DNA of 64,000 bases from a virus (Duplodnaviria > Heunggongvirae > Uroviricota > Caudoviricetes), in IMG/VR virus record IMGVR_UViG_3300037067_005176, positions 125,081 to 189,080 of that record, one strand, 5' to 3'. Shown piece after piece: positions 959-47,019 of the stretch (position 1 is the first letter of the stretch; each line of letters starts with the position of its first letter). Position numbers and translations under genes: made by a program. Below the pieces are notes generated by a model. It was not told the DNA's origin. It saw nothing but the letters and a program-made list of their open reading frames with translations, and ran no database searches.

Positions 959-1082
959 CAGTATGATTTTTATAGAACTTTAGTTGACAGACTTTCATAG
1001 AAGAATTATATTTAAATACATAGAAATTTAGAAACGAAATAATTAACTTCTTCCGTTAGGAAGAAAACGATGGAGAATATAA

Positions 1083-3291: not shown

Positions 3292-3357
3292 CACTTATAC
3301 AAAGATGCAAGAAAAACAATATGAGAATTGGATATTCTTTAGCGCGGAGAAATAAAA

Positions 3358-4100: not shown

Positions 4101-4106
4101 GGGTTT

Positions 4107-4850: not shown

Positions 4851-4858
4851 ATATTCGT

Positions 4859-10395: not shown

Positions 10396-10884
10396 ATGAA
10401 ATTTAGAGACGTTTATAATAAAAAGTATGAGGTTTGGTGCGATATGGATGGCGTTTTGGTTAACTTTAAAAACGCTATTGAAAAATTAGGATTAACTATA
10501 AAAAAACTTGATGATGAACCGAATAAAGCTTGGCCAATCATTGCAAAGGCTGGTGAAAATTTTTGGTCGCAAGCTCCATGGACGAATGACGGTAAAGAGT
10601 TGTGGGATTATGTAAAGAAATATAATCCAACAATTTTATCAGCGCCTTCTCAAGCTAATTCATCAAAGACAGGTAAACGAATTTGGGTGAAAAATGAACT
10701 GGGCCAAAATGTTAAAGTTATTTTATGTAAAGCCGCAGAGAAACAACAATACGCAAATTATAAATCTATCCTTATTGATGATATGGAAAAGAACATAGAT
10801 CAATGGGTTGCGAATGGCGGTGTTGGAATTTTGCATAAGAGTGCTAAGGAAACTATAAAGAAACTACAAGATCTTGGACTTTGA
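10396..10884 (+). CDS. 5'(3')-deoxyribonucleotidase-like HAD protein (NT5C family; CDMDGVLVNF)
   Basis: N-terminal DMDGVL motif of NT5C-type nucleotidases. Confidence 0.5.
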   Translation: MKFRDVYNKKYEVWCDMDGVLVNFKNAIEKLGLTIKKLDDEPNKAWPIIAKAGENFWSQAPWTNDGKELWDYVKKYNPTILSAPSQANSSKTGKRIWVKNELGQNVKVILCKAAEKQQYANYKSILIDDMEKNIDQWVANGGVGILHKSAKETIKKLQDLGL

Positions 10885-13622: not shown

Positions 13623-14174
13623 ATGATAAAACTAAATCAAGACAAAAAACTGTTCTTTTTATCGGATGCTCATTTGATGCATGCGAATATCATCAAATAT
13701 TGCAATCGCCCATTCGCTGATGCACAGGAGATGACCGAAACAGTTATACGAAATTGGAATAAAGTTGTTACTGATGAAGATCAGATTGTGTTTTTGGGTG
13801 ACTTTATTTGTGGATGTAAAAATGCTAAAGAAACTTCAGAATACTTTTATGAGTGCCTGAATGGCGAAAAGCATTTCATCCGTGGCAACCATGATACCGA
13901 TGATAAGATGTCGGATAAGTTGAATTGGTATAAGAATGATGAGAACCTTTATAGAACTCACTACAAAGGTTATGATTTGGTATTAAGCCACTATCCTTTT
14001 GAGCGAAAACATTTTAAGCCGTTGGCTAATGCGATTTATATTAGTGGTCATACGCATGATACGGATTTGATTTATGATAAATATAATAAATGTGTAAATG
14101 TGTGTTGCGAAGCTGTAAATTATACACCCATTTTATTTGAAAATATTTTAAATGAACTATCAAAGAATATATGA
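13623..14174 (+). CDS. Metallophosphoesterase (calcineurin-like; DAH..GDF..GNHD..GHTH motifs)
   Basis: Ordered MPP motifs read from the translation. Confidence 0.6.
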   Translation: MIKLNQDKKLFFLSDAHLMHANIIKYCNRPFADAQEMTETVIRNWNKVVTDEDQIVFLGDFICGCKNAKETSEYFYECLNGEKHFIRGNHDTDDKMSDKLNWYKNDENLYRTHYKGYDLVLSHYPFERKHFKPLANAIYISGHTHDTDLIYDKYNKCVNVCCEAVNYTPILFENILNELSKNI

Positions 14175-18643: not shown

Positions 18644-18973
18644 ATGACAACTCCTGCTACTCTTGCAACAAAGCTCGAAAACATCATCGATCTTCATGCT
18701 GTTCAACATCGTACAACTAAGTTCAGTTATCCTTTTACATCCGACGGTCGTCCTGCTCGTTTCTGGGAAATCTGTTGCTTTGTAGCTGATCGAAAAAACA
18801 CGGCAATCTCCGACATCAATCGCAGCTTTTATGGAAGCATGAAGTCCGATTGGCATAGTGTAATTCTTTATCTTTGCAATGTTGGTTTGCTTTCTCGCCG
18901 TGATGGAGTAATTCGTCCAGGCCATAAACTTGAACAATACCGTCGCACTATTATTGCAGAGATTAATGAATGA
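18644..18973 (+). CDS. Small winged-helix-like protein with C-ending codon bias (probable highly expressed regulator)
   Basis: GC and codon usage differ from neighbours (ctc, atc, cgt, tcc). The antisense ORF 18602..18997 is taken as an artefact. Confidence 0.45.
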   Translation: MTTPATLATKLENIIDLHAVQHRTTKFSYPFTSDGRPARFWEICCFVADRKNTAISDINRSFYGSMKSDWHSVILYLCNVGLLSRRDGVIRPGHKLEQYRRTIIAEINE

Positions 18974-18988
18974 TATAAATATTTTTAT

Positions 18989-19547
18989 GAAATTCAAAAC
19001 ATTGTATGAATCGCTAAATAATATTGAAGCTTTACAAAAGGTGATTTACTCAGGGACGTCACCTGTCTATGTTGCTACTGCAGGTATACAAGGAAGCGGA
19101 AAATCAACATTTGCTAAAGAGAACTTCAAAACTATTGAAATACTTGATCTTGATGAAATCAATAAAGATATTTCAAATGGTGATATGGAAGCGTTTCAAA
19201 GAAATAGATCAAAAGCAATTTCAAAGAAGAATGAGATGCTTAGAGATTTGTTTAAGAAAAGAAAATCATTTATTGATGCAGGTACTGCAGCCAATACTCA
19301 ATCTCTGTTGAAGAAACTTACTTATGCAAAATCTTTAGGATACACAACTGCTGTAGTGTATGTGAATATTCCAATAGAAGTTGCAATTGAAAGAAACTTA
19401 AAACGAATTGAAAGCGGTTCTCATGGAGTTCCCATTGAACGTGTTCAAGAAATTATAAACCGTACAGATATGAATGTTAGACAAACTATTAAAGAAATAA
19501 AAGACAATGCTGATCTTGTTGATTTCTTTATTGAAAAAGGACTATAA
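18989..19547 (+). CDS. P-loop kinase (Walker A GIQGSGKST; AAA_33/polynucleotide-kinase-like)
   Basis: Walker A GxxGSGKST near the N-terminus. Starts MKFKTLYES. Real start likely ATG 18989, downstream of the ORF-track start. Confidence 0.5.
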
Positions 19548-19548
19548 A

Positions 19549-20454
19549 ATGACAATTCAATCAACCGCTCGTAAAGGTATTCCTCACCTTTGGTTCCCAG
19601 GCAATTCAATGGAAATGAAGCCTTTGGATTTTTTGGACTTTATCAAATTACTTAGGCGCAATGCTGGCGTTATAAGTTACAAGAATACAAGTCTTTCTGA
19701 AAAGATTGATGGCGCCGGAATTCGATTCGGATGTGATGTTGATAAAAGATTCTTTATCGAGTCTTCTCGCTCAGGTCCTATCTTTGTACCTAAAGCATTT
19801 TCTAAATTTGCTGAAAACAAATTCGGCTCAACCAACGCAACAGCAAATGGGTATGATGCGATATTCGACGAGTTGGATGCGGATAATGTTTTATACTTTA
19901 TACTCAATAAGTATAACAAAAATGGTATAAAGGTTATAGGCGAAGTTCTTTTAAACCAATTTGGAGTTAAACATGATACTGAACAGAATCTTGTTAAATT
20001 TGTCAATACTTGGTATGATAGTACCAAGTTGGGGTCGTTTGCAACTTTTGTGTTATTTACCGTTCAAGATTCTGAAGGCAATACGCATAGAAGTTCAGAT
20101 GAAATTATAAGCCTACTAAAAGCAATATCAAATGACCGTATAAAATTTGAGACTGCTGAGATCAATGAATTTGAACCTTTAGATTTCTCAAAGCATATTG
20201 AGGGATTTGCAAAGGTTATGAAAACTGCATTTGATAATGACATAGATAACTTTATCTTGAAAAAGAAGAAGGATGCTGATGTTATTCTTTACATAAACAC
20301 TCTCCAAAAAATTCTCAATGCCCATTTATCTGCTTTAATCAATAAAGGAAAGTTTGGGCCAAACTATGAAGGACTTGTATTTGAATTTGATAATAAAATC
20401 AAGTTTAAGATTACAACGGAAACATTTAAAGATGCTAAAAGAAAATCCAAATAA
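19549..20454 (+). CDS. Ligase-like nucleotidyltransferase (motif I KIDGAG, motif IV EGLVFEF, motif V KIKFKI); candidate RNA ligase
   Basis: KxDG lysine-adenylation motif plus EGxV and KxK motifs in the correct order. Lies immediately downstream of the P-loop kinase. Confidence 0.4.
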   Translation: MTIQSTARKGIPHLWFPGNSMEMKPLDFLDFIKLLRRNAGVISYKNTSLSEKIDGAGIRFGCDVDKRFFIESSRSGPIFVPKAFSKFAENKFGSTNATANGYDAIFDELDADNVLYFILNKYNKNGIKVIGEVLLNQFGVKHDTEQNLVKFVNTWYDSTKLGSFATFVLFTVQDSEGNTHRSSDEIISLLKAISNDRIKFETAEINEFEPLDFSKHIEGFAKVMKTAFDNDIDNFILKKKKDADVILYINTLQKILNAHLSALINKGKFGPNYEGLVFEFDNKIKFKITTETFKDAKRKSK

Positions 20455-22693: not shown

Positions 22694-23614
22694 TTTAACT
22701 TTTTTCGAGGAAATGCTGAATTCCCTAGCTTCAAATCAAGAAAATCAAAGAATTCCTTCCGTGTTCCTCAACACATAACAATTGAAGAAGGTAAAATCCG
22801 AGTTCCAAAATTCAATGACGGTATCAAATTAATAAAACATAGAGAATTCAAAGGCGAGATTCGCCAATGCGCATTCTCAAGAGATTGTAGAAATCAATAT
22901 TTCGTATCTATCTTGGTAGCAACTACCCATGAACAACTACCACACACAGGTAAGCCAGTTGGTATTGATCTAGGTATTAAGGATTTCGCTATAACAAGCG
23001 ATGGTGTTAAGTACAAGAATCATCGTTATACTAAGCGATATGAAAGAGAACTGAAAGTAGCACAACAACATCTATCTCGTAAACAGAAAGGTAGTCGTCA
23101 ATCCGAAAAACAAAGATTGAAGGTTGCTCGTATTCATGAGAAGATATCTAATTCACGAAAAGATACGCTTCACAAAATATCTACCAAAATAGTTGCATCA
23201 TACGATGTGATTTGCTTGGAAGATTTGAATGTGAAAGGTATGGTAAAAAACCATAAGTTAGCTAAACATATTTCGGATTGTGGATGGGGTCTGTTTGTTT
23301 CCATGTTAGAATACAAAGCTAAGTGGAATAATAAACAGATCGTTAGAATCAATAGATTCTTTCCATCATCAAAGACATGCGCTGATTGCGGTTGGATCAA
23401 ATCTAATTTAACGCTGAATGATCGTGAATGGGTATGTGAATCATGTGGATGTGAGCATGATCGAGATGTAAATGCTGCTAAAAACATATTAACAGAAGGT
23501 GTAAGCCTTCTTTCGGTGGGAACCATCGAATACACTGATGGAGACGATGTTAGCCGTAGCAATACGCTGTTGTTTATGAAGTCAGAAGCCCATGAGTCTT
23601 TAGCTCAAGGGTAG
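22694..23614 (+). pseudogene. tnpB: 5'-truncated TnpB (IS200/IS605-family OrfB, RuvC-like; reads ..FRGNAEFPSFKSRK..GIDLGIKDF..CxxC..CxxC..DRDVNAAKNI)
   Basis: Frame open from 22694 (no start codon). RuvC-I GIDLG, zinc finger CADCG..CESCG and RuvC-III DVNAAKNI are present. About 100 N-terminal residues are missing. Confidence 0.6.
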
Positions 23615-23925
23615 TTCACAACATCGATGGAATTGAACAAGCTTTAAGACTTCATCGTGGATACAAATATTTTAAACGCAAATCAATTCACCGACTTGTT
23701 GCAAAGGCATATTGTGAAGAGTGGTTTGATGGTTGTGAGATTCACCACTTGGATCATAACAAGCTTAACAATGACATTTCTAACTTAGTATGTATTTCCA
23801 AATCAGAACATAAAAAATTCCATGCCAACGACATCCAAACGACGATAAAAGAAGTTGGTAAGTCAAGACGCAAGAAGAAAACTCAGAAGCATTGTTTCAA
23901 CAAGAAGTTCGTTATAAACAAATAA
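23596..23925 (+). pseudogene. HNH endonuclease C-terminal fragment (..HRLVAKAY..GCEIHHLDHNKLNNDISNL..SEHKKFHA)
   Basis: Open frame without start codon, beginning where the TnpB frame ends. HNH_3-type motif. Confidence 0.5.
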
Positions 23926-23930
23926 CAAAA

Positions 23931-23963
23931 AAGAGGAATCGTTTTGATTCCTCTTTTCGTTTT
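23931..23963 (+). terminator. Rho-independent terminator (gaggaatcGTTTTgattcctc + TTTTCGTTTT)
   Basis: 8-bp stem plus T-rich tail. Confidence 0.65.
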
Positions 23964-24083
23964 GACGATTGTAAGTTTTCTTTTTGTCTTTACGAATCCT
24001 AGTCATTAAGGTTCGTCCGTTGTTTGACTCACTTATACGATCTTGTCGTAAATAGTGATCAAGATTTTTCTTTTGGTCCTGGA

Positions 24084-24480
24084 TCATATATTTTTCCTTT
24101 TATAGATTCTTCCTAATACCCACCCTAAATTAACATAACTATCAACATCATTTTTATTTATAAATTTTGATGCCTTGTTATTTGTTATCCAAACTTTATT
24201 ACATTGAACTTTTGAAATATTATTTCGCCATTCGCTTGTCAATTTACGTCCTGTCATCGATGCTTTTGACACTTGTGATATAATCTTTTTAGTTTCTTCT
24301 GTATGGTTAAGATGTATTGCTCCATGCCCACCAATACACATGTTATATGTATCGTTTTGATTTATAAAAGCTTTTGTGATTATTGAGTGTTCTCTATTAA
24401 AAGCTTTGCATTTTCAATCAAACCATTCCAAAATCTCTTTCTTGAAATTTTCTTTACGATACTTCTTTATTGATTGTTTA
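24084..24480 (-). pseudogene. GIY-YIG endonuclease pseudogene (copy of 6540..7358 with in-frame stop: ..KENFKKEILEWFD*KCKAFNREHS..)
   Basis: Minus-strand translation aligns with 6540..7358 (KENFKKEILEWFDWRCEALNREAE) but has a stop and lacks the N-terminal domain. NUMOD3-like C-terminus at 24084..24341. Confidence 0.5.
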
Positions 24481-24492
24481 ACTTTATTTTAT

Positions 24493-24519
24493 AGAGGTTA
24501 TTAGTAGTAACCTCTTTTA
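24493..24519. terminator. Stem-loop terminator (agaggttaTTAGTAGtaacctct with T/A-rich flanks), usable in either direction
   Basis: Perfect 8-bp stem. + strand tail tttatatctattt. Confidence 0.4.
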
Positions 24520-24603
24520 TATCTATTTATAATTGCAGTAAGATTATTCCAAGAATAAAAATAATCAAATGACTACTAATCATCCGTCCTGCATCAATAT
24601 TTA

Positions 24604-24885
24604 TTATTTAGTTAATTCGTCAATTTCTTTAGAAATCATTTCGCATTTAGTGTTATAATCATATATAATCATAGCGATTTCACACCAAGAATAGAAGTCA
24701 GTAATATAAATGGATGCATCTTCTTGTGAATTAAGAAGATGCACATACTCTTCCATCATAAACTTGAAGTTCTCAATCCCAATGCGAGAAAGAGCCATTT
24801 TTTCCGAATCAGTCAAACTGATCGCGTGAGCCTCGTACTCTTCTAATGGGCGTGACTTCTTAAGTCTTTTTTCATCATGAAACAT
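24604..24885 (-). CDS. Hypothetical protein (93 aa), second gene of a leftward two-gene unit
   Basis: RBS ggagagaatgaATG. Overlap-coupled to the upstream 58-aa ORF. Confidence 0.45.
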   Translation of the reverse strand: MFHDEKRLKKSRPLEEYEAHAISLTDSEKMALSRIGIENFKFMMEEYVHLLNSQEDASIYITDFYSWCEIAMIIYDYNTKCEMISKEIDELTK

Positions 24886-24896
24886 TCATTCTCTCC

Positions 24897-25073
24897 TTAG
24901 GGACAAGTCCAAGTGTTGTATGCTTTTTCGCTAATCACCTTGTCTGTGCGAAGCGCATCTGTAAAACTGTTCCGAGCTTCACTTCTCATAACAGCATCAC
25001 CTTTCGGTAAATTTTTATGAGATTCCCTAAAGAGAGAAACAACTTCTTTCTTTGTCAATTGTTTTCTGGACAT
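24897..25073 (-). CDS. Small hypothetical protein (58 aa, MSRKQLTKKEVVSLFRESHKNLPKGDAV...)
   Basis: ORF below the track cutoff, read by hand. Divergent from the 25373 gene. Confidence 0.35.
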   Translation of the reverse strand: MSRKQLTKKEVVSLFRESHKNLPKGDAVMRSEARNSFTDALRTDKVISEKAYNTWTCP

Positions 25074-25372: not shown

Positions 25373-25900
25373 ATGACCACTGCAACAAAGTCCACCGCCG
25401 CCAAGTCTTCTTCCAAGTCCAAGAAGGCTGCTGAACCAAAAACCGAAGCTGTTGTGCTGCCTGTTGCTGCACCTGCAGTTGAAGTTGAAGGCTCTGCACC
25501 AATTGCAGAGCCCATTGCCGAAAAGACCAAGAAGGTTTTGACACCTTCCGACAAGATCGCCCTGAAGGTTGTTTCCGCAATCCGTTCCGATCGCTCGCAG
25601 TTCAACAAGGCCTTCGAACTTTCCGAAGACGGCAATACCGCGACCCATACTTTCTCCGCAAAGCTTGGATCCGCAATTGTTACCTTCGGCCGTCATGAAG
25701 TTGCAGGCAAGAAGACCCGCGAGACAATCGCCCGTGCATTCATCCATGTCAAGCCCGAAGGTTCCGAGAAGCATCTCGAAATCACCGGACCAATGGCTGC
25801 CCGTGCATGGTACGCAATGAACCATGCTCCTAAGGGTCACATCAAGTCCGAACCTGATGCAGAAGCTGTTGCCGCAGCTGAAGCCGCTCTCGGCCTGTAA
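25373..25900 (+). CDS. GC-rich (about 50% vs about 35% locally) protein with Lys/Ala/Ser-rich N-terminal tail and a conserved about 115-aa core ending ..EAALGL; paralog of 26023..26373
   Basis: Strong C-ending codon bias. The many overlapping ORFs on both strands here are GC artefacts. The core aligns with 26023..26373 (SDKIALKVV../..EALIALGLE). Confidence 0.6.
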   Translation: MTTATKSTAAKSSSKSKKAAEPKTEAVVLPVAAPAVEVEGSAPIAEPIAEKTKKVLTPSDKIALKVVSAIRSDRSQFNKAFELSEDGNTATHTFSAKLGSAIVTFGRHEVAGKKTRETIARAFIHVKPEGSEKHLEITGPMAARAWYAMNHAPKGHIKSEPDAEAVAAAEAALGL

Positions 25901-26022
25901 TCAAATCGTTACACAGACTGAATGGGTTTAGGGTGTGGGTTTTATCGCCCACGTAATTCCTGGGAGGACTCGATTGCCTCCCTCAGTCCTATCAAATCAA
26001 AACCTCTAAAGGAGAATAGTGT

Positions 26023-26373
26023 ATGTCCGTAAAGTTCACCCTTTCCGATAAGATTGCAGTCGCTGTAATTGAAAGCTTGCGTGCAGGCGTTCAACTTCGG
26101 CCAACGATCGGAAAGACAGCTCATGGAAATATGAATGGGTTTATGTTTACAAATGAAAAGAATGCAACAATTCATATTCAAGCCTTCACAAAGGAAGGCG
26201 GAAAAAATGCAAAGTTTGTTATCGCAATAACTCCAGCTGAAGGTCGCACCACGGAAATTTTTGGTAAACATGCTTCGCTCGCATGGAAGATAATCAATAA
26301 TCCAACGACTTCAAGACGTGAAGTTGATATTGAAACTTTAAACGAAGCACTTATAGCTCTTGGTTTAGAATAA
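26023..26373 (+). CDS. Paralog of the 25373 protein core (116 aa, ends ..EALIALGLE)
   Basis: Shared motifs SDKIA[LV].V[VI]..R and C-terminal A..ALGL. RBS aaaggag. Confidence 0.55.
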   Translation: MSVKFTLSDKIAVAVIESLRAGVQLRPTIGKTAHGNMNGFMFTNEKNATIHIQAFTKEGGKNAKFVIAITPAEGRTTEIFGKHASLAWKIINNPTTSRREVDIETLNEALIALGLE

Positions 26374-26410
26374 TATTATATTCAATCCTAGCAAGAAAAA
26401 AATAAAAATT

Positions 26411-26449
26411 AAAAGTTCTAGATAACTTCAAAAATCCAGAACTTTTTTA
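26411..26449 (+). terminator. Rho-independent terminator (aaaagttctag...ccagaactttt + T6)
   Basis: 7/8-bp stem plus T6. Confidence 0.45.
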
Positions 26450-26490
26450 TATTTAAATTTCCATTAAAACAATAAACAAGGAAGGTTAAA

Positions 26491-26676
26491 ATGGTCACTT
26501 TCACAGTACTCGCATATTCAGTTGATTCTACAGGTCGTATTTATGGTGAGGCAAAGCCGAAGCATGTTTGGACGAAGGAGTTAATGGAATCCTACCGAGG
26601 GATGCGTTATGTGTCAATGATTTTTGAAAATGAGAACGGAAAGTCTAAACTTATTTGGGAAAATCGTCGGGGTTAA
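26491..26676 (+). CDS. Small hypothetical protein (61 aa)
   Basis: RBS aaggaagg. Confidence 0.4.
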   Translation: MVTFTVLAYSVDSTGRIYGEAKPKHVWTKELMESYRGMRYVSMIFENENGKSKLIWENRRG

Positions 26677-26961
26677 TTATGACAAAGAAAACGGTGATTG
26701 TTAATAAGATACCGTTTTCCTAGTCAAGTGTTCATCTCGTGGTTATAATGTACAAAATTTGAACACAAAGATTTGGATGAAAGTTTGTGTTAGAAACGAA
26801 AAGAACTTGAATTACATTTAAGAGGTATATGATGCAATGATTATGAAGGACGTCCTTAGCGCAAAGTAACTTGTCCGCCCAGAGAGCGATGAATCCGTTG
26901 AAACTTTTGGTGAAGCGGAAGAACTTATTAAATGCCTCTTTAACAAACTGGGAATTTGTAA

Positions 26962-27489
26962 ATGATTAAAATTATATCCGATGGTGAAACTGGTGTTGGA
27001 CAAGCTGCCCTAGCTGCGGCTTTTCTATGTGATACTGAATATATTGGCTATGTCAGGGCCGGTTATATAACATGTAACGGCCCATGCGAAAAATTAAAGC
27101 ATTTAAATTGTCAAACTTTAGAAACTGATCGTCTTCGTGACTGTGCTCAAAAGTGCATTGATGAATGTAATGGTGTTCTTATTTTCCGTTCGGGTGAATG
27201 CTCAAAGATTGAAGACAATGTTAAGTCTTTAATAGGTGAGTCTCGCCCTGTTATGGAATTTGATTTTCTAAAGCCAATTGATCCAAGATCAATTACAGTT
27301 TGGCTCCTCACTGAAGGAATCACAAAGCTGTATGTGACTGGACGCAACGATACAATGGGTTTAGATATCTTTTATAATAAAGCGTTACCTTTGATGACTC
27401 ATATTATAAAAGATATTAACAACGAGCTTGAAAGAAAAGAGCTTGACAACAAAAGAAAAGCAAAAGCAAAAGCTGAAGTGAAAAAGTAA
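26962..27489 (+). CDS. SLOG-superfamily protein (YpsA / putative MoCo-carrier-like; ISDGETGVGQAALAAA)
   Basis: N-terminal GxTGVxxAAL motif characteristic of the YpsA/MoCo_carrier SLOG family. Confidence 0.45.
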   Translation: MIKIISDGETGVGQAALAAAFLCDTEYIGYVRAGYITCNGPCEKLKHLNCQTLETDRLRDCAQKCIDECNGVLIFRSGECSKIEDNVKSLIGESRPVMEFDFLKPIDPRSITVWLLTEGITKLYVTGRNDTMGLDIFYNKALPLMTHIIKDINNELERKELDNKRKAKAKAEVKK

Positions 27490-27527
27490 TTCGGCTTGTT
27501 TATAAGTTACGACGCAGGAGTGATAAT

Positions 27528-28328
27528 ATGTTAAAAGGTTTTGTGATTTCGGATATTCACATTGATCATATTGGTAATGGAAGTCCAAGCAGAGACAAGA
27601 TGCTTCGGTATCTTGAACCAAAGTTATGTCCCGCTGATGTAGTTTTTATTGGCGGAGATATTTCAAATAGCGGCTCTGCGTTCTCAAAGCTCGTCGATAC
27701 ACTTAGTGAGTTATATCCTAAGGTTGTATATTGTCTTGGTAATCATGATTACGCAGTGCATCCAAACAAGAATGAAACTTCTTTTCAAAAAGTTGAGCGT
27801 TCTGTTAATGGTGTAAAATCTATCAACTCCGTATTTCTTAATGGTGGGCATCATGATCTTTCAGACTTCACAAGAGTCGGAGGAACTATGGGTGCTTATG
27901 ATATGTCATATTCTGAAAAGCATTTTGGTTTATCATATGATCACATGTTAAGAGAATGGAATAATTGGTATGATGGTCGTTATTGGGATTTGAACGGGAT
28001 GACATACACAGAATTTATGAACCGTGAATTTGATAAGATTGATGATTTGATAAATGATAAGCAGTGCAATATAATGCTTACACATATCGGTCCATTTGCT
28101 TGGGGAATACCACCAAAGTTTCATAACGCACAGACTGGATTCTTTTACTTTGATGGGAAAAGATATCTTGATGCGATGCCAAACGATTCTGTTTGGATTT
28201 TTGGCCATACTCACGATCAAAAAATTCTTGACCTTGGCAACGTTCGTCTTCTTTGCAATCCTCTTGGGTACATTGGAGAAAGCAGAACAACGATTCCAAA
28301 AGAAGAGTTTTTATTTGATATAAAATAA
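27528..28328 (+). CDS. Metallophosphoesterase (calcineurin-like; GDISNSG..GNHDY..GHTHD)
   Basis: Ordered MPP motifs. RBS gcaggag. Confidence 0.55.
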   Translation: MLKGFVISDIHIDHIGNGSPSRDKMLRYLEPKLCPADVVFIGGDISNSGSAFSKLVDTLSELYPKVVYCLGNHDYAVHPNKNETSFQKVERSVNGVKSINSVFLNGGHHDLSDFTRVGGTMGAYDMSYSEKHFGLSYDHMLREWNNWYDGRYWDLNGMTYTEFMNREFDKIDDLINDKQCNIMLTHIGPFAWGIPPKFHNAQTGFFYFDGKRYLDAMPNDSVWIFGHTHDQKILDLGNVRLLCNPLGYIGESRTTIPKEEFLFDIK

Positions 28329-28343
28329 ACAAAGAAGGTATAA

Positions 28344-28802
28344 ATGATAGTATATGTTGATATGGATAATGTGATGTGTGATTTTAATCGCGCAAAGAAA
28401 TTAGCAATTAAAAACACTCCTGATAATGCGTATCCTCATAGTCAAGTAGATTTTTTTAGACAACTTGAAGAAATTGATGGAGCTATTGATGCTTTGATTG
28501 ACTTATGCGAGGCTGGAATTGACGTTTATATTCTTACTGCACCTTCGACATTGAATCCAATGAGTTATATGGAAAAGATGCTTTGGGTCCGTGATCATCT
28601 TGGACAATGGTGGGTTGAGCGGTTAATTATTAGTAAGCATAAACATCTTAATGTTGGCGATTACCTTGTTGATGATATGGCAGGAGGGTGTGGACAAGAA
28701 CAATTTATAGGCACTCTCCTTCAATTCGGAAGTAAGCAATATCCAAATTGGATCACTGTAAAAGAATTTCTTATTCACAAAAAACAAAGTGAGGATGTAT
28801 GA
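28344..28802 (+). CDS. 5'(3')-deoxyribonucleotidase (NT5C-family HAD; VYVDMDNVMCDF)
   Basis: DMDxV motif I and overall size typical of NT5C. Confidence 0.5.
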   Translation: MIVYVDMDNVMCDFNRAKKLAIKNTPDNAYPHSQVDFFRQLEEIDGAIDALIDLCEAGIDVYILTAPSTLNPMSYMEKMLWVRDHLGQWWVERLIISKHKHLNVGDYLVDDMAGGCGQEQFIGTLLQFGSKQYPNWITVKEFLIHKKQSEDV

Positions 28803-29173
28803 GTTTATATAATATGCTATTTGGGGTGAATGCTTTATCCCCTGTGCTTTTGAAAATCATCAATCTTGAAATGGGAATTATACCAAGATTCAGAGATTGC
28901 TATATTGACGGCGAATACATTATTGTTCATACACGGTCGGGTGGTGGAAACAGAGAATGGCTTGAAGAAGAAAATAATATGCTTGAAGCAAATGAAAATT
29001 ATTCGCATGATGAAGACGATGATTTTGATTGTACTTATGCGAATTTTTATTTCAACATTCCAAGTGAATATGCTGAAGATATTAATGCCCTTGTAAATAA
29101 AGATGAAACTTATAAACCTTCAGAGAAGTGGGCAAAACTATTTGAAGGATTGGAAAAGAAAGATGAAAATTGA
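28799..29173 (+). CDS. Acidic hypothetical protein (124 aa)
   Basis: ATGA-overlap start. RBS gtgagg. Confidence 0.45.
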   Translation: MSLYNMLFGVNALSPVLLKIINLEMGIIPRFRDCYIDGEYIIVHTRSGGGNREWLEEENNMLEANENYSHDEDDDFDCTYANFYFNIPSEYAEDINALVNKDETYKPSEKWAKLFEGLEKKDEN

Positions 29174-29242
29174 ATATAAAATTGTTAATGCAAATGATGA
29201 AACTAAAGTACTTTTTGAAGATGGCTTCGGAAAGGAGATTGA

Positions 29243-29395
29243 ATGAAATGCGGAAAATGTAATATTGGTAAACTTAAATATAATGAGAAAGGTATTTATT
29301 TTTGGTATACTTGTAATAATTGTGATTATGAAACACGCAAAGAAGTAAATACAATAAATAAAAGACTTATAAAAGAGAAAACTTATGGGACGTAA
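29243..29395 (+). CDS. Small zinc-ribbon protein (50 aa; CGKC...CNNCDYE)
   Basis: RBS aaaggag 5 nt upstream. Below the ORF-track cutoff. Same architecture as the - strand zinc-ribbon family. Confidence 0.4.
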   Translation: MKCGKCNIGKLKYNEKGIYFWYTCNNCDYETRKEVNTINKRLIKEKTYGT

Positions 29396-30380
29396 ACTTG
29401 CATCAATTCAGCGCATTTGGAAAATTGAACCAATTGAAGGAGCTGACAGAATTGAATTAGTTCGTGTAATGGGCTGGCAGTGTATAGCAAAGAAAGAAGA
29501 GTTCGAAAAGTATGATCTATGTGTATACATCGAAATTGACTCTGTATGCCCAAAAGAAGATGAACGATTTGCTATGCTTGCTTCAACCAATTGGAAGGTT
29601 AAAACAAGAAAGATGAAAAATACTCTCTCGCAAGGTATTGCATTACCACTTTCTTTATTCGGCTGGACTGATGCTGATGTTACACTTGAAGAGGATGTTT
29701 CTGAAAAGCTAGGTATTAAACTTTTTGAAAATTATGAAACATTTAATGCAGTCGAAGCAAAAGGTGGATTTCCAGGATTCATTCGTAAGACTGACCAAGA
29801 AAGATCAGCCAATTTAAGTCAAAAAACTTATGAAAATTATAGCAAAATGAAATTTGAAGTTACTGAAAAATGCGAAGGATCTAGTTCCACTTGGTTTTTA
29901 CGCGATAATGAATTCTTTGCATGTTCTCGCAATCTTGTGATGAGACTTATTGACGGTTCTCGTTGGAAATATTTAAACTACAAATACAATCTTGAAAATA
30001 AGTTAAAAACTTATGGAAAGAATATTGCTATTCAAGCGGAAATATTAGGGCCAGGAATACAGAAAAATTATTATGGTTTAAGTTCTTATGAGATTAAAAT
30101 ATTTGATGTGTTTGATATTGATGCACAAAGATATTTAAATCCTGATGAAAGATATAAAGTTCTTGAAGAGCTAGGTCTTATGCATATTCATGTTCCAATT
30201 GTGCATAAAGAATTTTCGTTTGAAGGAATAACTCATGATGAGTTGATGAAATTAGCCAACGGAAAATCTATGATTTCTTCAAACAAGATTCGTGAAGGTT
30301 TGGTTTATAAGTGCATATCAAATGGAGATTATCACTTTAAAACCGTTGATCCAATTTACTTGCTCAAAGAAGATCAATGA
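29385..30380 (+). CDS. RNA-ligase-family nucleotidyltransferase-like protein (variant motif I EKCEGSS, motif IV EGLVYK, motif V FKTVD) with N-terminal extra domain
   Basis: EGxVxK motif IV and K-x-[DE]-G motif I in appropriate order and spacing. Confidence 0.4.
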   Translation: MGRKLASIQRIWKIEPIEGADRIELVRVMGWQCIAKKEEFEKYDLCVYIEIDSVCPKEDERFAMLASTNWKVKTRKMKNTLSQGIALPLSLFGWTDADVTLEEDVSEKLGIKLFENYETFNAVEAKGGFPGFIRKTDQERSANLSQKTYENYSKMKFEVTEKCEGSSSTWFLRDNEFFACSRNLVMRLIDGSRWKYLNYKYNLENKLKTYGKNIAIQAEILGPGIQKNYYGLSSYEIKIFDVFDIDAQRYLNPDERYKVLEELGLMHIHVPIVHKEFSFEGITHDELMKLANGKSMISSNKIREGLVYKCISNGDYHFKTVDPIYLLKEDQ

Positions 30381-30637
30381 ACTACCAAAGAATATATGAT
30401 GCAATAAAAAGAACTTCTATTGCTAATAAAGGCCGTAAAAATACAATTGAATCGAATAAGCGAATAAGCGACTCTATAATTGGAAAGCACAAAGGCTTAA
30501 AAAATCCAAACTTTGGAAAGTATAATACGGATTCACCAAACTATGGAAGAAGATGGTTTCATAATAAAATCGGTGAACGCGTATACAAAAATCCGGATGA
30601 AGTTGATCATAACATTTGGATTTTTGGTATGAAATGA
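30377..30637 (+). pseudogene. Internally deleted HNH endonuclease relic (MNYQRIYDAI... lacks the HNH catalytic motif)
   Basis: N- and C-termini match 14152..14757 but the middle (ERHHIIPK...EHYLCH) is absent. Confidence 0.45.
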
Positions 30638-30700
30638 CATAAATTTTCACTATAGTTTATTTTTCGTGAAATACCGCGAGAAAAAAAATCATTTTTACCA

Positions 30701-30729
30701 TTGCAAAGTGGTAAAATAGTTTGTATATT
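30701..30729 (+). promoter_or_regulatory. sigma70-like promoter TTGCAA-N17-TATATT within a repeated promoter-leader cassette
   Basis: Near-identical to the cassette at 48069-48192. Confidence 0.5.
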
Positions 30730-30770
30730 GTATCTATCGAAAGGCAACAAACTCCAAAGAGGATACTAAA

Positions 30771-31151
30771 ATGATTAGGTTTTTCTATAATGGTTTTAAA
30801 ATTGATGATGACAAAAAGTTGTATAAAGTATACTTTACACCATGCACCAATGGAACGATTCGTGTTACATCTGAAGATTATATAGCCTTCCCAAAAGCAA
30901 CCCGCGATCAATTTGTAGTCGTTAATAATACTAACATTATGATTGATTATTTTGAGAATGAATATTTTGAAATTTCAACGACCCATGAGTTGTTCAAATT
31001 TGCAAAAATTGCTTTGTTACAAAATTCCCTTAAATATTTTACTAGCCAATATAAGAAATGCCTAAAATATTCTTGGGAAAAGAAAGGTGAGTTTGTCCAA
31101 GCCAAAATAAATGAGTATCAAGAACAAATAAAAGCTTTGGAGAACGCATGA
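30771..31151 (+). CDS. Hypothetical protein (126 aa)
   Basis: RBS aaagagga downstream of the repeated promoter cassette. Confidence 0.5.
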   Translation: MIRFFYNGFKIDDDKKLYKVYFTPCTNGTIRVTSEDYIAFPKATRDQFVVVNNTNIMIDYFENEYFEISTTHELFKFAKIALLQNSLKYFTSQYKKCLKYSWEKKGEFVQAKINEYQEQIKALENA

Positions 31152-31661: not shown

Positions 31662-32852
31662 ATGTCAATTTATAAATTATTCTCAATTGTAGGAATTACA
31701 ATTTTAATTTTTGCAGTGCTTTTCACTCTTCCAAGAATTATTGAAAACATTGATACAACAGAATATAAAATCAAGCAAGCAGCAATATCTGGTGATATGT
31801 CTTGTCATAATGAATCTGGGTGGTTTTGGCAAAGTTTAGGTAATGTTGTAACATACGACAAAACCGGTACTTTTTATTTTTCTGAAGAAAATATTGATGG
31901 TGGCGAAGGCGAAGACGCTGATCCATTGCATGCTACATTCCAAGGTAATTCCACAGGAAAGATTAGTGGTTATCTTAAATATAGATTGCCTTCAAAATGT
32001 GATAATCAGTTATCACTGAATTCTGAATATAAGAATAAAGAGTCTGTTCGTATGGATTTAATTCGAAATGCAATTTCAACTGCTATTGGTCAAGCAGGGC
32101 CATTGTTCACTGCTGAAGAAGCAAATATTGATCGTCGTCCAGAGTTTACAAAAATTATTCGAGATATTCTTGAAGAAGGCGAATTTTTAACAGTTACATC
32201 CGAAGTTAATAGGATTGAAGATAATGATTCAACTAACATTCAAAGGTTTAAAGTAACAAAGATGTGGTTGGATTCGACAGGCAAACGAATGATCACAAAA
32301 CCATCAGTTTTAAAACGTTATGGAATTGAAGTGATTGCTTTGGATATTAAGAAAATTAATTTTGATATCAAGACAAGAGAATTGATGGATGCAAAGAAGA
32401 ATGCTGAACAACAACGAATTGCTTCTAAAGCTTTAGCGGAAAAATCTAAGCAAGACGCTATTACCGAACGTGAACAAGGTAATGCTCGTGTTGCAAAAGC
32501 AAAAGCTGATGAAGAAGTTATTAAAATTGCTGAAGTGACACAAGCTGAAAAACAATTTGAAGTTGCACGATTAGCTGCGGCAACTGCTTTAGAAGATGCA
32601 AAGAAAGTTAAAGCTCAAGGTGAAGCTGAAGCGTATGCTGCACGTGCTAAGGTATCCGCAGGTTTAACACCACAAGAACGTGCAGAATGGGATTTCAAAA
32701 TCGCTGATGCTGTATCACGAAATCTTGCTCAATCTACAGTTAAATGGGTGCCTGAAATTATAATTAGCGGTGAAGGTAAAGGTGGATCAAATCCGTTGGA
32801 TGCTGTAGGCATGAATATGTTGTTAGATGTTGCAAGTAAAATGAAAAAGTAA
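31662..32852 (+). CDS. SPFH/band-7 (stomatin/flotillin-like) membrane protein
   Basis: N-terminal TM helix, then Ala/Glu/Lys-rich coiled-coil region typical of the SPFH family. Confidence 0.5.
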   Translation: MSIYKLFSIVGITILIFAVLFTLPRIIENIDTTEYKIKQAAISGDMSCHNESGWFWQSLGNVVTYDKTGTFYFSEENIDGGEGEDADPLHATFQGNSTGKISGYLKYRLPSKCDNQLSLNSEYKNKESVRMDLIRNAISTAIGQAGPLFTAEEANIDRRPEFTKIIRDILEEGEFLTVTSEVNRIEDNDSTNIQRFKVTKMWLDSTGKRMITKPSVLKRYGIEVIALDIKKINFDIKTRELMDAKKNAEQQRIASKALAEKSKQDAITEREQGNARVAKAKADEEVIKIAEVTQAEKQFEVARLAAATALEDAKKVKAQGEAEAYAARAKVSAGLTPQERAEWDFKIADAVSRNLAQSTVKWVPEIIISGEGKGGSNPLDAVGMNMLLDVASKMKK

Positions 32853-32874
32853 TATTTAAAACAAAGGAATGATT

Positions 32875-33996
32875 ATGAATAAGAAATACAAATTAACTAA
32901 AGAGACTATAGTCATTAGTTCATCAACTTTATATAGAATAAAGGCTCTAATTGACATTCCTTCTTCTAATGTTAAAAAAGGTGATCCGGGTGGATTCATT
33001 GAAAATGAATCCAATCTAAGTCATGAAGGTTCTTGCTGGGTCGCTGATAATGCAAGAGTCTTTGGTGATGCATGGGTCTTTGGTGATGCATGGGTCTTTG
33101 GTTCTGCAAGAGTTTATGGTAATGCAGGTGTCTTTGGTAATGCATTGGTCTTTGGTAATGCATTGGTCTTTGGTAATGCAAAGGTCTTTGGTTCTGCAAA
33201 GGTCTCTGATAATGCAAGAGTCTATGATAATGCATGGGTCTATGGTAATGCAAGAGTTTATGGTTCTGCATGGGTCTCTGGTAATGCAAAGGTCTTTGGT
33301 AATACATGGGTCTATGATAATGCAAGAGTTTATGGTAATACAAATGTCTATGATAATGCAAAGGCCTATGGTGATGCATCGGTCTATGGTGATGCAAAGG
33401 TCTATGGTGATGCATTGGTCTATGATAATGTAAAGGTCGCTGATAATGCAAGAGTCTTTGGTGATGCATGGGTCTTTGGTGATGCATGGGTCTTTGGTTC
33501 TGCAAAGGTCTCTGATTCTGCAAGAGTTTATGGTTCTGCAAGAGTCTCTGGTGATGCAAGAGTCTATGGTTCTGCAAAGGTCGCTGGCAATGCAAATGTC
33601 TTTAGTAATGCAAAGGTCGCTGATAATGCATGGGTCTATGGTAATGCAAGAGTCTCTGATAATGCAAGAGTCTTTGGTAATGCAAAGGTCTATGATAATG
33701 CATTGGTCTATGATAATGCAATAGTCTCTGGTTCTGCAAAGGTATATGGTGATGCAAAGGTCTATGATACTGCAAGAATCTATGATAATGCATTGGTCTT
33801 TGGTAATACATGGGTCTATGGTAATGCATTGGTCTCTGATAATGCACCTGCGGTAGCGAAGTATTATATTGATGGTGAACAGGTTTTATTTGAAGTATTT
33901 AAAGAGCGGACTAAAGAACCTGAAAATGAAGTTGTTATGACCATAAAAGAAATTGAACAAAAACTTGGAATACCTAATTTAAAAATTACACGGTAA
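32875..33996 (+). CDS. Hexapeptide-repeat (left-handed beta-helix-like) protein, family copy 1: conserved 55-aa N-module plus about 45 tandem x-V-[FYS]-[GD]-[NDS]-A repeats
   Basis: Protein periodicity of 6 aa, DNA periodicity of 18 bp. N-terminus MNKKYKLTKET..TLYRIKAL..KKGD.GGFIENESNLSHEG.CWV shared with 43431 and 47016. Confidence 0.65.
   Translation: MNKKYKLTKETIVISSSTLYRIKALIDIPSSNVKKGDPGGFIENESNLSHEGSCWVADNARVFGDAWVFGDAWVFGSARVYGNAGVFGNALVFGNALVFGNAKVFGSAKVSDNARVYDNAWVYGNARVYGSAWVSGNAKVFGNTWVYDNARVYGNTNVYDNAKAYGDASVYGDAKVYGDALVYDNVKVADNARVFGDAWVFGDAWVFGSAKVSDSARVYGSARVSGDARVYGSAKVAGNANVFSNAKVADNAWVYGNARVSDNARVFGNAKVYDNALVYDNAIVSGSAKVYGDAKVYDTARIYDNALVFGNTWVYGNALVSDNAPAVAKYYIDGEQVLFEVFKERTKEPENEVVMTIKEIEQKLGIPNLKITR
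33041..33850 (+). repeat. 18-bp tandem coding repeat array (hexapeptide repeats)
   Basis: Units of the form ggtaatgcaaaggtcttt repeated about 45 times with variation. Confidence 0.7.
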
Positions 33997-35072: not shown

Positions 35073-35465
35073 ATGAATTATGGATTTGATTATCACGGCG
35101 TGTTGAATCTTGAAAGTGATAAATTTAGAAATATTGCGGCACAGTTAGTTTCAGAAGGACATGAAGTCCATGTGATGACTGGGTCCACCGAAAAGTATTG
35201 GTTAGAAGAATCTAAAGATTTGCTTGAAAAAGGAATTCATTATACACACTTCTTTAGTGTTGCGGATTATCTTAAAGATTTAGGAATTCCAAGTGGCGGC
35301 ACATACGATAGTCCTCGTTATGAAGATGATCGTTGGAATTCTGCAAAAGGTGAATATGCTTTTTATATTGGACTTATTGAACATACTGATGATTGTAGTA
35401 AATATCAGGAACATTTTCCAAAGTCCTGCAAATTCAATCTTGTGATTAATGGAGAGATTATATGA
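35073..35465 (+). CDS. Hypothetical protein (130 aa)
   Basis: ORF with RBS gtgagga. Confidence 0.45.
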   Translation: MNYGFDYHGVLNLESDKFRNIAAQLVSEGHEVHVMTGSTEKYWLEESKDLLEKGIHYTHFFSVADYLKDLGIPSGGTYDSPRYEDDRWNSAKGEYAFYIGLIEHTDDCSKYQEHFPKSCKFNLVINGEII

Positions 35466-35959
35466 GTATGAAGTTTTCAGAATATGCAAAAGATGTAATG
35501 GGGAAAATTTCCGCGGCATGTTTATTGTACAGAGAAGATCGCGGCCCAAGAGAATATTTTATTGTTCATCCGGGTGGTCCTTATTATACTAACAAATGGA
35601 AAGGTTATTGGAGCATTCCAAAAGGTATGGCTGAAAACGACGAAGACTTGAAGATCGCTGCTCGTAGAGAGTTGAAAGAAGAAACTGGTTTAGTGCCTGA
35701 TGGATTTTTAACTGATCTTGGCACTACAGTTTTGAACTCTGGGAAAATCATTCATGCGTTTCTTGCTAAAGGCAGTGGTGAATGGCAAGGCTCTAATACT
35801 TTTGAAATGGAATGGCCACCTAAGTCAGGGAAGAAAGAGAAGTTCCCTGAAATTGACTCGGGCGAATGGTACAATGCTGAAGCCTGCAAAGAGATGTTAG
35901 GAATCAATCAAACTATTTTCATAGACCGAGCTGAGAAGATTCTAGACAAGGTCAAATAA
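35462..35959 (+). CDS. Nudix hydrolase
   Basis: Nudix box G(x5)E(x7)REL.EETG (GMAENDEDLKIAARRELKEETGL). Confidence 0.65.
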   Translation: MSMKFSEYAKDVMGKISAACLLYREDRGPREYFIVHPGGPYYTNKWKGYWSIPKGMAENDEDLKIAARRELKEETGLVPDGFLTDLGTTVLNSGKIIHAFLAKGSGEWQGSNTFEMEWPPKSGKKEKFPEIDSGEWYNAEACKEMLGINQTIFIDRAEKILDKVK

Positions 35960-45984: not shown

Positions 45985-47019
45985 ATGAATGAAAAAAAAG
46001 AAAAGACATATTGTGTTTATGTTGGACGCTTTCAGCCTTGCCACTTGGCACATGTGAAGACAATTCAAAATGCTTTAGCGATCGCTGATGAAGTTTGTAT
46101 TATCATCGGCTCTTATCGCCAAACTCCTACGGTGAAAAACCCATGGACGTTTGATATGCGAGAGAAGATGATTCGCGCTTGCTTCAGCATTCAAGACAAT
46201 GAACGAATCAAAGTGGCTCCTATGCGAGACTATCTTTACAACGATAATACTTGGATCACTTCCATGTATGACATCATTGCAAAGATGACAAACAATTCCG
46301 AGAATGTTCAAATCATTGGACATAAAAAGGATAAGTCCACCGAGTATCTTGAATTCTTTCCATCCTGGACTTGGGTCCCTCAACCAAATTTCGACAACAT
46401 CAATGCAACAGACATCCGCATGGATTTGTTTACTCACTGTATGGTGAAAGAAACATCCGGCACTGTGCATCCTGAAGTTGTAAAACTTATTCACAATTGG
46501 AAAGCAGGCAACGAGCTCTTTACGAATCTTGTTGCTGAATTTGAATTTGTGAAGAAGTATCGTGAATCTTGGAAGGTTGCACCATATCCTCCAACATTTG
46601 TTACATCTGATGCAGTATGTGTCAAGTCTGGGCATGTGTTGGTAATCAAGAGAGGTATGAATCCTGGTAAAGGGCTCTTTGCTCTCCCAGGTGGATTTGT
46701 AAATCAAAATGAAGATGTTCGTACAGCATCTATCCGCGAGCTTCGAGAAGAGACTGGAAAATGGATGAGCGTTGATGATCTTGATGAAAAGATTGTTGCA
46801 GAACATGTCTTTGATCATCCTAAACGCGATCCTCGTGGTCGTTGCATTACACATGCGTTTTTGTTCAAGCTTAATGATAAAGGACCTCTTCCTTTAGTTA
46901 AGGCTGACGATGATGCAAGCGATGCAATTTGGATGCCGTTCTCTGATGTGATTGCAAGTGAAGAAAGCTTCTATGCTGATCATGCGCATATAATTTGTTA
47001 TTTTGTTAATAAGCTATGA
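45985..47019 (+). CDS. Bifunctional NMN adenylyltransferase / Nudix hydrolase (NadM-Nudix, NatV-like)
   Basis: N-terminal GRFQPCHLAH (HxGH-type NMNAT motif) and C-terminal Nudix box SIRELREETGKW. RBS aaaggaagag upstream of ATG 45985; the ORF-track start 45775 overlaps the upstream gene. Confidence 0.65.
   Translation: MNEKKEKTYCVYVGRFQPCHLAHVKTIQNALAIADEVCIIIGSYRQTPTVKNPWTFDMREKMIRACFSIQDNERIKVAPMRDYLYNDNTWITSMYDIIAKMTNNSENVQIIGHKKDKSTEYLEFFPSWTWVPQPNFDNINATDIRMDLFTHCMVKETSGTVHPEVVKLIHNWKAGNELFTNLVAEFEFVKKYRESWKVAPYPPTFVTSDAVCVKSGHVLVIKRGMNPGKGLFALPGGFVNQNEDVRTASIRELREETGKWMSVDDLDEKIVAEHVFDHPKRDPRGRCITHAFLFKLNDKGPLPLVKADDDASDAIWMPFSDVIASEESFYADHAHIICYFVNKL

Follow-up and report, generated by a model that had tools for sequence, protein, structure and literature searches.

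Adjacent SLOG, metallophosphoesterase and NT5C-like genes in a large phage: a clade-specific gene pair and no dedicated three-gene system

Introduction

Do neighbouring genes for a SLOG-family protein, a metallophosphoesterase (MPP) and an NT5C-like nucleotidase in a tailed phage form a dedicated system, perhaps one that interferes with the nucleotide immune signals of the host? The question is raised by a stretch of 64,000 nucleotides (positions 125,081 to 189,080 of the IMG/VR record IMGVR_UViG_3300037067_005176, Caudoviricetes), which we refer to at its full length as the window. An earlier note on this DNA had read the three genes as a candidate cassette that binds and hydrolyses nucleotide second messengers, or restores NAD after depletion-type defences. 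The host record of the window is a large, low-GC phage (189 kb contig), and the window itself has a low G+C content of ~32%. The three open reading frames (ORFs) lie exactly where they had been placed, as intact genes within a tightly packed, co-directional string of auxiliary genes:

26962..27489, + strand: SLOG, a divergent cpYpsA-clade SLOG protein of 175 amino acids with a clade-specific cysteine set (C42, C61, C65, C69) and a basic C-terminal helix
27528..28328, + strand: MPP, a PptH-like binuclear metallophosphodiesterase of 266 amino acids with all five MPP motifs intact
28344..28802, + strand: NT5C-like, a HAD-family 5'(3')-deoxyribonucleotidase-like protein of 152 amino acids with the motifs DMDNV, TAPS, K and DD

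A role in signal interference has a published precedent as a prediction. Iyer et al. 2022 (Viruses 14:1977, PMC9503650) surveyed viral NAD+ and ADP-ribose (ADPr) domains and found SLOG domains, mainly YpsA-like, in 31% of jumbo phages; they proposed that viral SLOGs sense or degrade immune signals of the cyclic ADP-ribose (cADPR) type, arguing from the Macro, NADAR and DUF4326 domains to which these SLOGs are fused or beside which they are encoded. The interference idea for the window is a specific case of this prediction, minus the partners that motivated it. The window SLOG resembles those described in the survey in being a stand-alone YpsA-like SLOG of a large phage, whose gene shares an early or auxiliary region with genes for RNA repair and NAD salvage. 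However, where the surveyed contexts hold Macro, NADAR and DUF4326, its own neighbours are a PptH-like MPP and an NT5C-like HAD protein, in an arrangement confined to one clade. A literature search turned up no experiments on a phage cpYpsA protein or on SLOG anti-defence.

Results

Conservation of the gene arrangement

The reading of the three genes as one cassette did not hold when other loci were compared. SLOG followed by MPP was seen in 8/8 distinct contexts with downstream room, all of them in one narrow clade. In six of these the MPP is the very next gene (once with a 4-nt overlap) and in the other two it is the next but one, the inserted gene encoding an uncharacterised protein of 189 amino acids in one case and an NAD-dependent epimerase in the other (ERZ22666135). 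The NT5C-like gene follows the pair in 3 of the 7 contexts with enough downstream sequence. The genes upstream (175, 116 and 61 amino acids) are also collinear in the clade contexts L002, L004 and L010, so the adjacency of SLOG and MPP may be simple inheritance. Relatives of the MPP were found both with and without a SLOG neighbour:

L013 and L014, 51% identity: neighbours TelA and DUF2721; no SLOG
L011 and L012, 46% identity: RNA-ligase-domain gene directly upstream, HNH and NADAR downstream; no SLOG
L010, 44% identity: cpYpsA directly upstream; SLOG present
P0041 contigs, 38% identity: between DHFR and an IMPDH-like gene; no SLOG

A rough neighbour-joining tree nests the SLOG-less MPP of L013 among the SLOG-linked MPPs.

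We widened this to a census of the MPP family, starting from 504 IMG/VR relatives of which 80 loci were fetched; together with five earlier MPP loci these made 85 loci in 59 dereplicated groups. A cpYpsA gene lay near the MPP in none of the 80 fetched loci, the sole SLOG match of the census being the already known L010, and an NT5C-like gene was found within 5 kb in one of the 59 groups, as a marginal match. The recurrent neighbours were dCMP deaminase and Hsp20 (8 groups each), ATP-dependent DNA ligase, RegA and clamp-loader gp62 (7 each), and clamp-loader gp44 and Rnl1 (6 each); the setting of the MPP family is a T4-type replication and nucleotide-metabolism region.

Approached from the SLOG side, the picture is similar. 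None of 21 metagenomic loci with nearest-outgroup SLOGs had an NT5C-like gene nearby, and the single MPP among them (L100) is adjacent to the SLOG and of an unrelated PPP/ApaH type. Among 115 bacterial cpYpsA loci there was no NT5C-like neighbour, a weak MPP match within 3 kb at one locus, and no neighbour family present in more than five loci. With the trio in 0/59 MPP groups, 0/21 outgroup SLOG loci and 0/115 bacterial loci, we rejected a conserved three-gene SLOG-MPP-NT5C operon. There is no dedicated three-gene system here; the SLOG-MPP pair is specific to one clade, and any claim of functional coupling is open only to that pair and only within that clade of phages.

Two further arrangements around relatives of these genes deserve description. 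On L015, a 202 kb IMG/VR phage contig, a cpYpsA SLOG of 29% identity overlaps the start of an ATP-dependent DNA ligase gene by 4 nt (4001-5835). Upstream of this pair lie homologues of two other window genes, its second MPP (1.7 kb upstream) and an RNA-ligase-like ORF (L015 781-1770, E 1e-46), and these two homologues adjoin each other. L011 (4046-6795) and L012 (1430-5491) share a string comprising an R2K ATP-grasp protein, an uncharacterised protein of 172 amino acids, a short RNA-ligase-domain protein, the MPP (46%), HNH and NADAR, which is a candidate SLOG-less RNA-repair or ADPr-processing neighbourhood.

The SLOG protein

A profile check bore out the SLOG assignment: the protein matches PF12694 with 39.4 bits against a gathering score of 26.2 (E 6.5e-10), residues 4-130 falling on profile positions 1-127 of 145. 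It has the circularly permuted SLOG Rossmannoid fold seen in 3imk, the cpYpsA exemplar from Syntrophus aciditrophicus (PF12694, 'putative molybdenum carrier'), to which it is only 22% identical. A BFVD fold search returned generic SLOG, DprA and 'MoCo carrier' matches only. The clade to which it belongs is very small, with 20 proteins of 51-75% identity among 5.8 billion, all bearing precomputed PF12694 matches. In a set of 1.84 billion representatives clustered at 50% identity it makes up one cluster, and the nearest protein beyond it stands at E 3e-26. Scans of IMG/VR with the SLOG clade alignment and with the nearest-outgroup alignment found no relatives, and a scan with a further SLOG alignment (A4) found one locus. 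Using tblastn, the L015 SLOG gave nothing against cultured phages, and the window SLOG gave only a weak N-terminal match to Maribacter phages.

Residues were compared across 19 clade members, 16 near-outgroup sequences and 75 canonical sequences. The glycine-rich loop ISDGETGVGQAALAAA, to which the earlier note had attached its family assignment, stood up in part: the structural glycines are retained, but against the canonical cpYpsA loop GGQTG[AV]D[RQ]AAL it is atypical, with G at the conserved D/E position. Overall Q9 is replaced by E, D/E13 by G and E52 by T. D/E13 is found in 83-95% and E52 in 75-95% of canonical, near-outgroup and clade sequences, and the loss of both family-conserved acidic residues (13 and 52) is unique to the window copy. 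LOG enzymes carry a PGGxGTxxE motif, and by analogy D/E13 of cpYpsA SLOGs may be catalytic; if so, the window SLOG, having lost both acidic residues, would more probably bind or regulate than catalyse. In Bacillus subtilis YpsA the GxD/E motif is required for function (Brzozowski et al. 2019, PMC6459960).

The remainder of the pocket is remodelled throughout the clade. Substitutions at canonical polar positions comprise Q9E, P32R, R61C, N65C, S69C, D70N, T72V and N124Y, such that the canonical pocket residues R61, N65, D70, T72 and N124 are absent across the clade, with C, C, N, V and Y in their place. The cysteines make up a clade-invariant C61-x3-C65-x3-C69 run on helix 58-68, to which C42 is added. 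In contrast to canonical cpYpsA (PF12694), therefore, the window clade has this cysteine run and C42 in place of polar residues, and has gained a basic C-terminal helix. The cysteine set (C42, C61, C65, C69) may constitute a metal or redox site, or confer a new ligand specificity. We regard the cysteine-remodelled SLOG clade as mildly new, each component being otherwise from a known family.

Partners of cpYpsA in other genomes give some indication of what the family handles. Fusion or adjacency to IF-2B-family domains (MtnA / ribose-1,5-bisphosphate isomerase fold) was seen repeatedly, at the following loci:

L104 674-1273: IF-2B-linked cpYpsA
L108 4986-6284: IF-2B-linked cpYpsA
L109 368-1636: IF-2B-linked cpYpsA
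P0113 and P0165: IF-2B-linked cpYpsA

These partners suggest that the family releases or handles ribose phosphate. Fusions in the wider family also involve DUF6794, DNA polymerase A, Pol III alpha and a methyltransferase, and in one case (L112) ribonucleotide reductase is encoded directly upstream of cpYpsA. Taken together, the cpYpsA partners indicate replication and the metabolism of nucleotides and ribose phosphates. About a dozen cpYpsA representatives have ~270 amino acids, and the two that were scanned bear a C-terminal DUF6794.

The metallophosphoesterase

The calcineurin-like phosphoesterase proposed for 27528..28328 was recovered as such, with matches to Metallophos (E 2e-12) and phrog_1649 (E 9e-24). 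All five motifs of the calcineurin-like superfamily (PF00149: DxH, GD, GNH[DE], H and GHxH) are present as D9/H11, G43-D44, G71-N72-H73, H186 and G226-H227-x-H229, and these metal-binding motifs are invariant or nearly so in 33 sequences. The MPP specifically resembles PptH (Rv2795c of Mycobacterium tuberculosis, PDB 6unc), in both sequence and structure and over the entire chain, insertions included, at just 16% identity. The genomic settings differ, in that the phage family resides in replication and nucleotide-metabolism regions whereas PptH is encoded beside a phosphopantetheinyl transferase; no carrier-protein, phosphopantetheinyl transferase or fatty-acid gene was present in any MPP neighbourhood examined. 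One characterisation paper called PptH unique to mycobacteria. A widespread phage MPP family that is specifically related to mycobacterial PptH, and often stands beside ligases, is mildly new.

The earlier note had named two identities that would make the MPP ordinary, and both were rejected: an Mre11/SbcD nuclease, judged by closest fold and profile match together with an adjacent Rad50/SbcC partner, and a PPP-type Ser/Thr phosphatase (lambda PP, calcineurin), judged by the GDxxDRG and GNHE motifs together with the fold.

The NT5C-like protein and its paralogue

The third gene product is also what it had been taken for, matching PF06941 at 51.9 bits against a cut-off of 24.8 (E 1e-13), human cytosolic 5'(3')-deoxyribonucleotidase (cdN, 2i7d_A) at E 5e-12, the cdN/mdN enzymes over a range of 5e-12 to 2e-8, and phrog_2643 at E 2e-9. 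HAD motifs I-IV were read from the translation as D6-x-D8-x-V, T65-A-P-S, K98/K100 and D110-D111. With cdN/mdN (PF06941) and phrog_2643 the protein shares the HAD core, the DxDxV nucleophile, the Thr/Ser motif, the Lys and the DD; it is shorter than cdN/mdN (152 against ~195-200 amino acids), with a reduced cap region. The window encodes one paralogue:

10396..10884, + strand: divergent NT5C-like HAD paralogue, 29% identity (BLASTP, E 4e-8) to 28344-28802

It keeps the DMDGV, SAPS and DD motifs, and its place as a second NT5C-like protein was upheld by this similarity although it has no Pfam or NCBIfam match.

The gene string and its surroundings

Genes run on the + strand up to ~52 kb of the window, except for a short minus-strand islet at 23.9-25.1 kb. 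The string that contains the three genes begins after this islet and comprises, in addition to them:

25373-25900, + strand: 175 amino acids, first gene of the string after the minus-strand islet
26023-26373, + strand: 116 amino acids, second gene
26491-26676, + strand: 61 amino acids, third gene, upstream of SLOG
28799..29173, + strand: 124-amino-acid protein whose start overlaps the NT5C-like stop by 4 nt; context gene
29243..29395, + strand: 50-amino-acid ORF with two CxxC pairs, overlapping the ligase start; context, from the ORF list and a gene call on a Logan contig
29385..30380, + strand: RNA ligase, DraRnl/Rnl5-type, ATP-dependent, with an N-terminal OB domain
30377-30637, + strand: 86 amino acids, after the RNA ligase

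From SLOG onward the intergenic gaps are 38, 15, -4, 69, -11 and -4 nt, and with gaps so short or overlapping, co-transcription from SLOG onward is plausible. Promoter and terminator scans near the three genes returned background (32 found against 25 expected, and 4 against 3.3) and are given no weight here. An identical SLOG protein occurs on a JGI contig of 189,080 bp and on a Logan contig. A megablast search of cultured phages with 26000-31000 gave no match, and hence there is no annotated close relative.

Upstream, an IS605 OrfB/TnpB-like ORF (22913-23614) is followed by four minus-strand genes, and the GC skew changes sign there (22913-25073); this ORF and the islet are likely an insertion point bounding the transcription unit that contains SLOG. 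The first two genes of the string, 25373-25900 and 26023-26373, appear to be distant paralogues, one ORF of L002 matching both, and both are kept upstream of SLOG in L002, L004 and L010. The N-terminus of the 25373-25900 product is of low complexity and rich in Ala, Lys and Pro.

Downstream, the 124-amino-acid protein has no Pfam, PHROG or NCBIfam match. Homologues of ~40% identity occur in Xanthomonas phage phiXF1 and Geobacillus virus E3, in contexts that are uninformative. The E3 homologue is the N-terminus of a 253-amino-acid protein (L118 4001-4762), encoded ~0.5 kb downstream of genes for a nucleoside 2-deoxyribosyltransferase and a thymidine kinase. The 50-amino-acid ORF looks, by eye, putatively zinc-ribbon-like. 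The ligase matches PF21189 (PHA02142 OB domain), PF09414 RNA_ligase, phrog_968 (E 7e-69) and TIGR02306 RNA_lig_DRB0094 (E 4e-41), and its best relative, at 39% identity, belongs to a 735 kb uncultured phage.

Other genes of the window

The remaining nucleotide-related genes on which the earlier note drew proved real in profile scans, and further RNA-repair genes were found alongside them:

13623..14174, + strand: second small MPP, unrelated to the first, with weak PdeM-like similarity
15755/15809-16444: cytidylyltransferase-like ORF, confirmed
18930-19547, + strand: P-loop kinase resembling polynucleotide kinase, AAA_33/Zeta, phrog_505 polynucleotide kinase E 3e-12; overlaps 19507-20454
19507-20454, + strand: RNA-ligase-like ORF with weak RNA_ligase matches, homologous to the L015 ORF described above
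35462-35959: second Nudix, ORF confirmed
45985..47019, + strand: NadM-Nudix, a bifunctional NMN adenylyltransferase / ADP-ribose pyrophosphatase (NF003791 E 2e-108; Pfam CTP_transf_like and NUDIX), 18 kb away from the three genes
48309-49574 and 50600-51760: CCA-adding/poly(A)-polymerase-type nucleotidyltransferase and RtcB ligase, close together

The segment 18930-20454 is a Pnk and Rnl-type pair without a phosphatase domain. Counting the Rnl5-type ligase, the ligase-like ORF and RtcB, the window holds three or four ligases, which suggests heavy investment in tRNA and RNA repair; no tRNA genes were found in the window. Among the ~50 window ORFs scanned there was no Macro, NADAR, DUF4326, NAMPT or Tpt1.

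Several observations concern the window more broadly. A radical-SAM/SPASM protein, GT92/GT2 glycosyltransferases and a HAD_2-nucleotidyltransferase fusion are grouped at 201-4850 and could represent a sugar-nucleotide pathway for DNA or surface glycosylation. A QueC-like ORF at 54565-55308 on the - strand (phrog_1550, E 9e-27) hints at 7-deazaguanine metabolism, possibly for DNA modification. The products of 32869-33996 and 43431-44162 are paralogues that match the YdcK beta-solenoid repeat and bactofilin Pfam models alike, and an SPFH/Band-7 protein is encoded at 31662-32852. Homing-endonuclease-like ORFs of the GIY-YIG (SegE- or I-TevI-like) or NUMOD3 kind, at 6540-7358, 41730-42602 and 14152-14757, fit a mosaic and often rearranged auxiliary region.

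Discussion

We tentatively favour, at somewhat short of even confidence, a reading in which SLOG, MPP and the NT5C-like protein are loosely linked soluble nucleotide-turnover enzymes in a region of phage nucleotide and nucleic-acid metabolism, serving pool conditioning or salvage. The computed basis for this consists of gene integrity, family and fold assignment, conservation of catalytic motifs and synteny statistics, and from it we infer substrates, reaction order and physiological purpose. The MPP would hydrolyse an X-O-P-O-Y phosphodiester in a nucleotide-type substrate, the NT5C-like enzyme would dephosphorylate deoxynucleoside monophosphates, and SLOG would bind a ribonucleotide-type ligand. 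SLOG relatives that retain the acidic residues may split such a ligand in the manner of LOG into base and ribose phosphate, while the window copy would act in a binding or regulatory capacity. The genome setting of the MPP family, its DHFR and IMPDH-like neighbours and the partners of cpYpsA speak for nucleotide turnover. It also should be considered that the NT5C-like, MPP, Nudix and cytidylyltransferase-like genes occur in the window as paralogous pairs, which fits a broad nucleotide-metabolic repertoire and not one cassette.

A number of points weigh against nucleotide turnover. For cpYpsA and for the phage MPP family the assignment is a family-level analogy. Retention of the SLOG-MPP pair in every clade context, despite insertions between the two genes, could mean a specific joint function. 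The closest characterised relative of the MPP acts on a protein-linked phosphodiester and not on a nucleotide. For a replicating phage, dephosphorylation of deoxynucleoside monophosphates seems counterproductive unless particular nucleotides are to be excluded. Finally, ligases recur near both MPP and SLOG genes, pointing to nucleic-acid ends over free nucleotides.

Indeed, ligases are the most interpretable of the recurrent neighbours and make RNA or DNA end-healing a real rival, even if on balance an unlikely one. Here the MPP, and possibly the HAD protein, would clean RNA or DNA ends (a 2',3'-cyclic phosphate, a 3'-phosphate or another adduct) for the Rnl5-type ligase and so restore tRNA or mRNA that anticodon nucleases of the host have cleaved. 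Phage healing-and-sealing RNA repair is familiar from T4 Pnkp with Rnl1 and Rnl2, and a calcineurin-type phosphoesterase domain is part of Clostridium thermocellum Pnkp. The window string is comparable in that its ATP-dependent RNA ligase is encoded together with a phosphoesterase and a phosphatase of the HAD family, all genes from 26962 to 30637 being co-directional with gaps of at most 69 nt or overlaps. Elsewhere the window encodes RtcB, a CCA-adding-type enzyme and a polynucleotide kinase that is paired with another ligase-like gene. Iyer et al. 2022 (PMC9503650) count calcineurin-like and HAD enzymes among the components of RNA-repair neighbourhoods in phages. Other loci show ligases beside MPP and SLOG genes in arrangements independent of one another, and the evidence from them includes the RNA-ligase-domain gene that abuts the 46%-identical MPP in L011 and L012, the presence of DNA ligase in 7/59 and Rnl1 in 6/59 of the wider MPP groups within 3 kb, often immediately upstream, a DNA ligase gene two genes upstream of the MPP in Yersinia phage fHe-Yen9-04, the SLOG-DNA ligase overlap of L015 with its upstream RNA-ligase-like gene and small MPP, and RNA-repair HAD_SAK_2 genes 1.6-3.7 kb from SLOG in a Maribacter phage and a clade contig. 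However, ligase proximity amounts to ~20% of groups in raw counts without a background expectation, and may reflect shared residence in a replication and repair region. The linkage is also lost among the nearest relatives, L003 having Eco57I-like and methyltransferase-like genes downstream where the window has its ligase. The string includes no kinase, the nearest lying 8 kb away; the HAD protein is clearly of the NT5C (free-nucleotide) type and not of the Pnkp or HAD_SAK type; and SLOG would have no obvious role in such a pathway.

Counter-defence, as first proposed for this locus, is in our estimate about as improbable. SLOG would bind a nucleotide signal of host immunity (for example a cADPR isomer, another ADP-ribose derivative or a cyclic oligonucleotide), which the MPP and NT5C-like protein would degrade, or else the set would aid NadM-Nudix in rebuilding NAD+ after its depletion. 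The idea is chemically coherent, in that an N-glycosidase or binder, a phosphodiesterase and a phosphomonoesterase could jointly dismantle such a molecule. The SLOG falls in the YpsA-like branch for which processing of ADPr signals is predicted (Iyer et al. 2022), the SLOG-MPP pair is retained throughout its clade, the 46%-identical MPP of L012, itself without a SLOG, is followed at 0.9 kb by a NADAR gene, NADAR having been seen only there, and NadM-Nudix and a second Nudix are encoded in the window. Against this, the window SLOG has no fused or adjacent Macro, NADAR or DUF4326 partner and is without the two family-conserved acidic residues, even though a non-catalytic SLOG could still serve as a sponge. 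A narrower version, which we consider more doubtful still, confines the proposal to the clade pair as a two-protein counter-defence against ADP-ribose-derived signals (e.g., the Thoeris signals glycocyclic ADP-ribose, gcADPR, and histidine-ADP-ribose, His-ADPR): the cysteine-lined SLOG pocket would recognise the signal, the MPP would cleave it and the NT5C-like protein would clear the products. The resemblance to PptH raises one more explanation, that the MPP strips 4'-phosphopantetheine from host holo-acyl-carrier proteins, or removes a related Ser-O-phospho adduct, and thereby remodels lipid or CoA metabolism, with SLOG and the NT5C-like protein being incidental. Identity to PptH is only 16%, MPP subfamilies often switch substrate with the fold unchanged, and the neighbourhoods lack the carrier-protein, phosphopantetheinyl transferase and fatty-acid genes noted above; we hold this explanation to be very improbable.

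What the comparison shows, then, is no system but three ordinary nucleotide enzymes whose genes move separately. Two leads emerge from it: a PptH-related phage MPP family, with 504 relatives in IMG/VR and often beside ligases, and a small clade of SLOGs whose pocket has been remodelled and is rich in cysteine. Should the SLOG-MPP pair of this clade after all dismantle an immune signal, it would do so by a mechanism distinct from that of the sponges Tad1 and Tad2 and of the 2H and MBL nucleases Acb1 and Apyc1. This would give the large and uncharacterised cpYpsA family its first function, and the prediction that viral SLOGs act against ADP-ribose-based immunity would have its first support from experiment.

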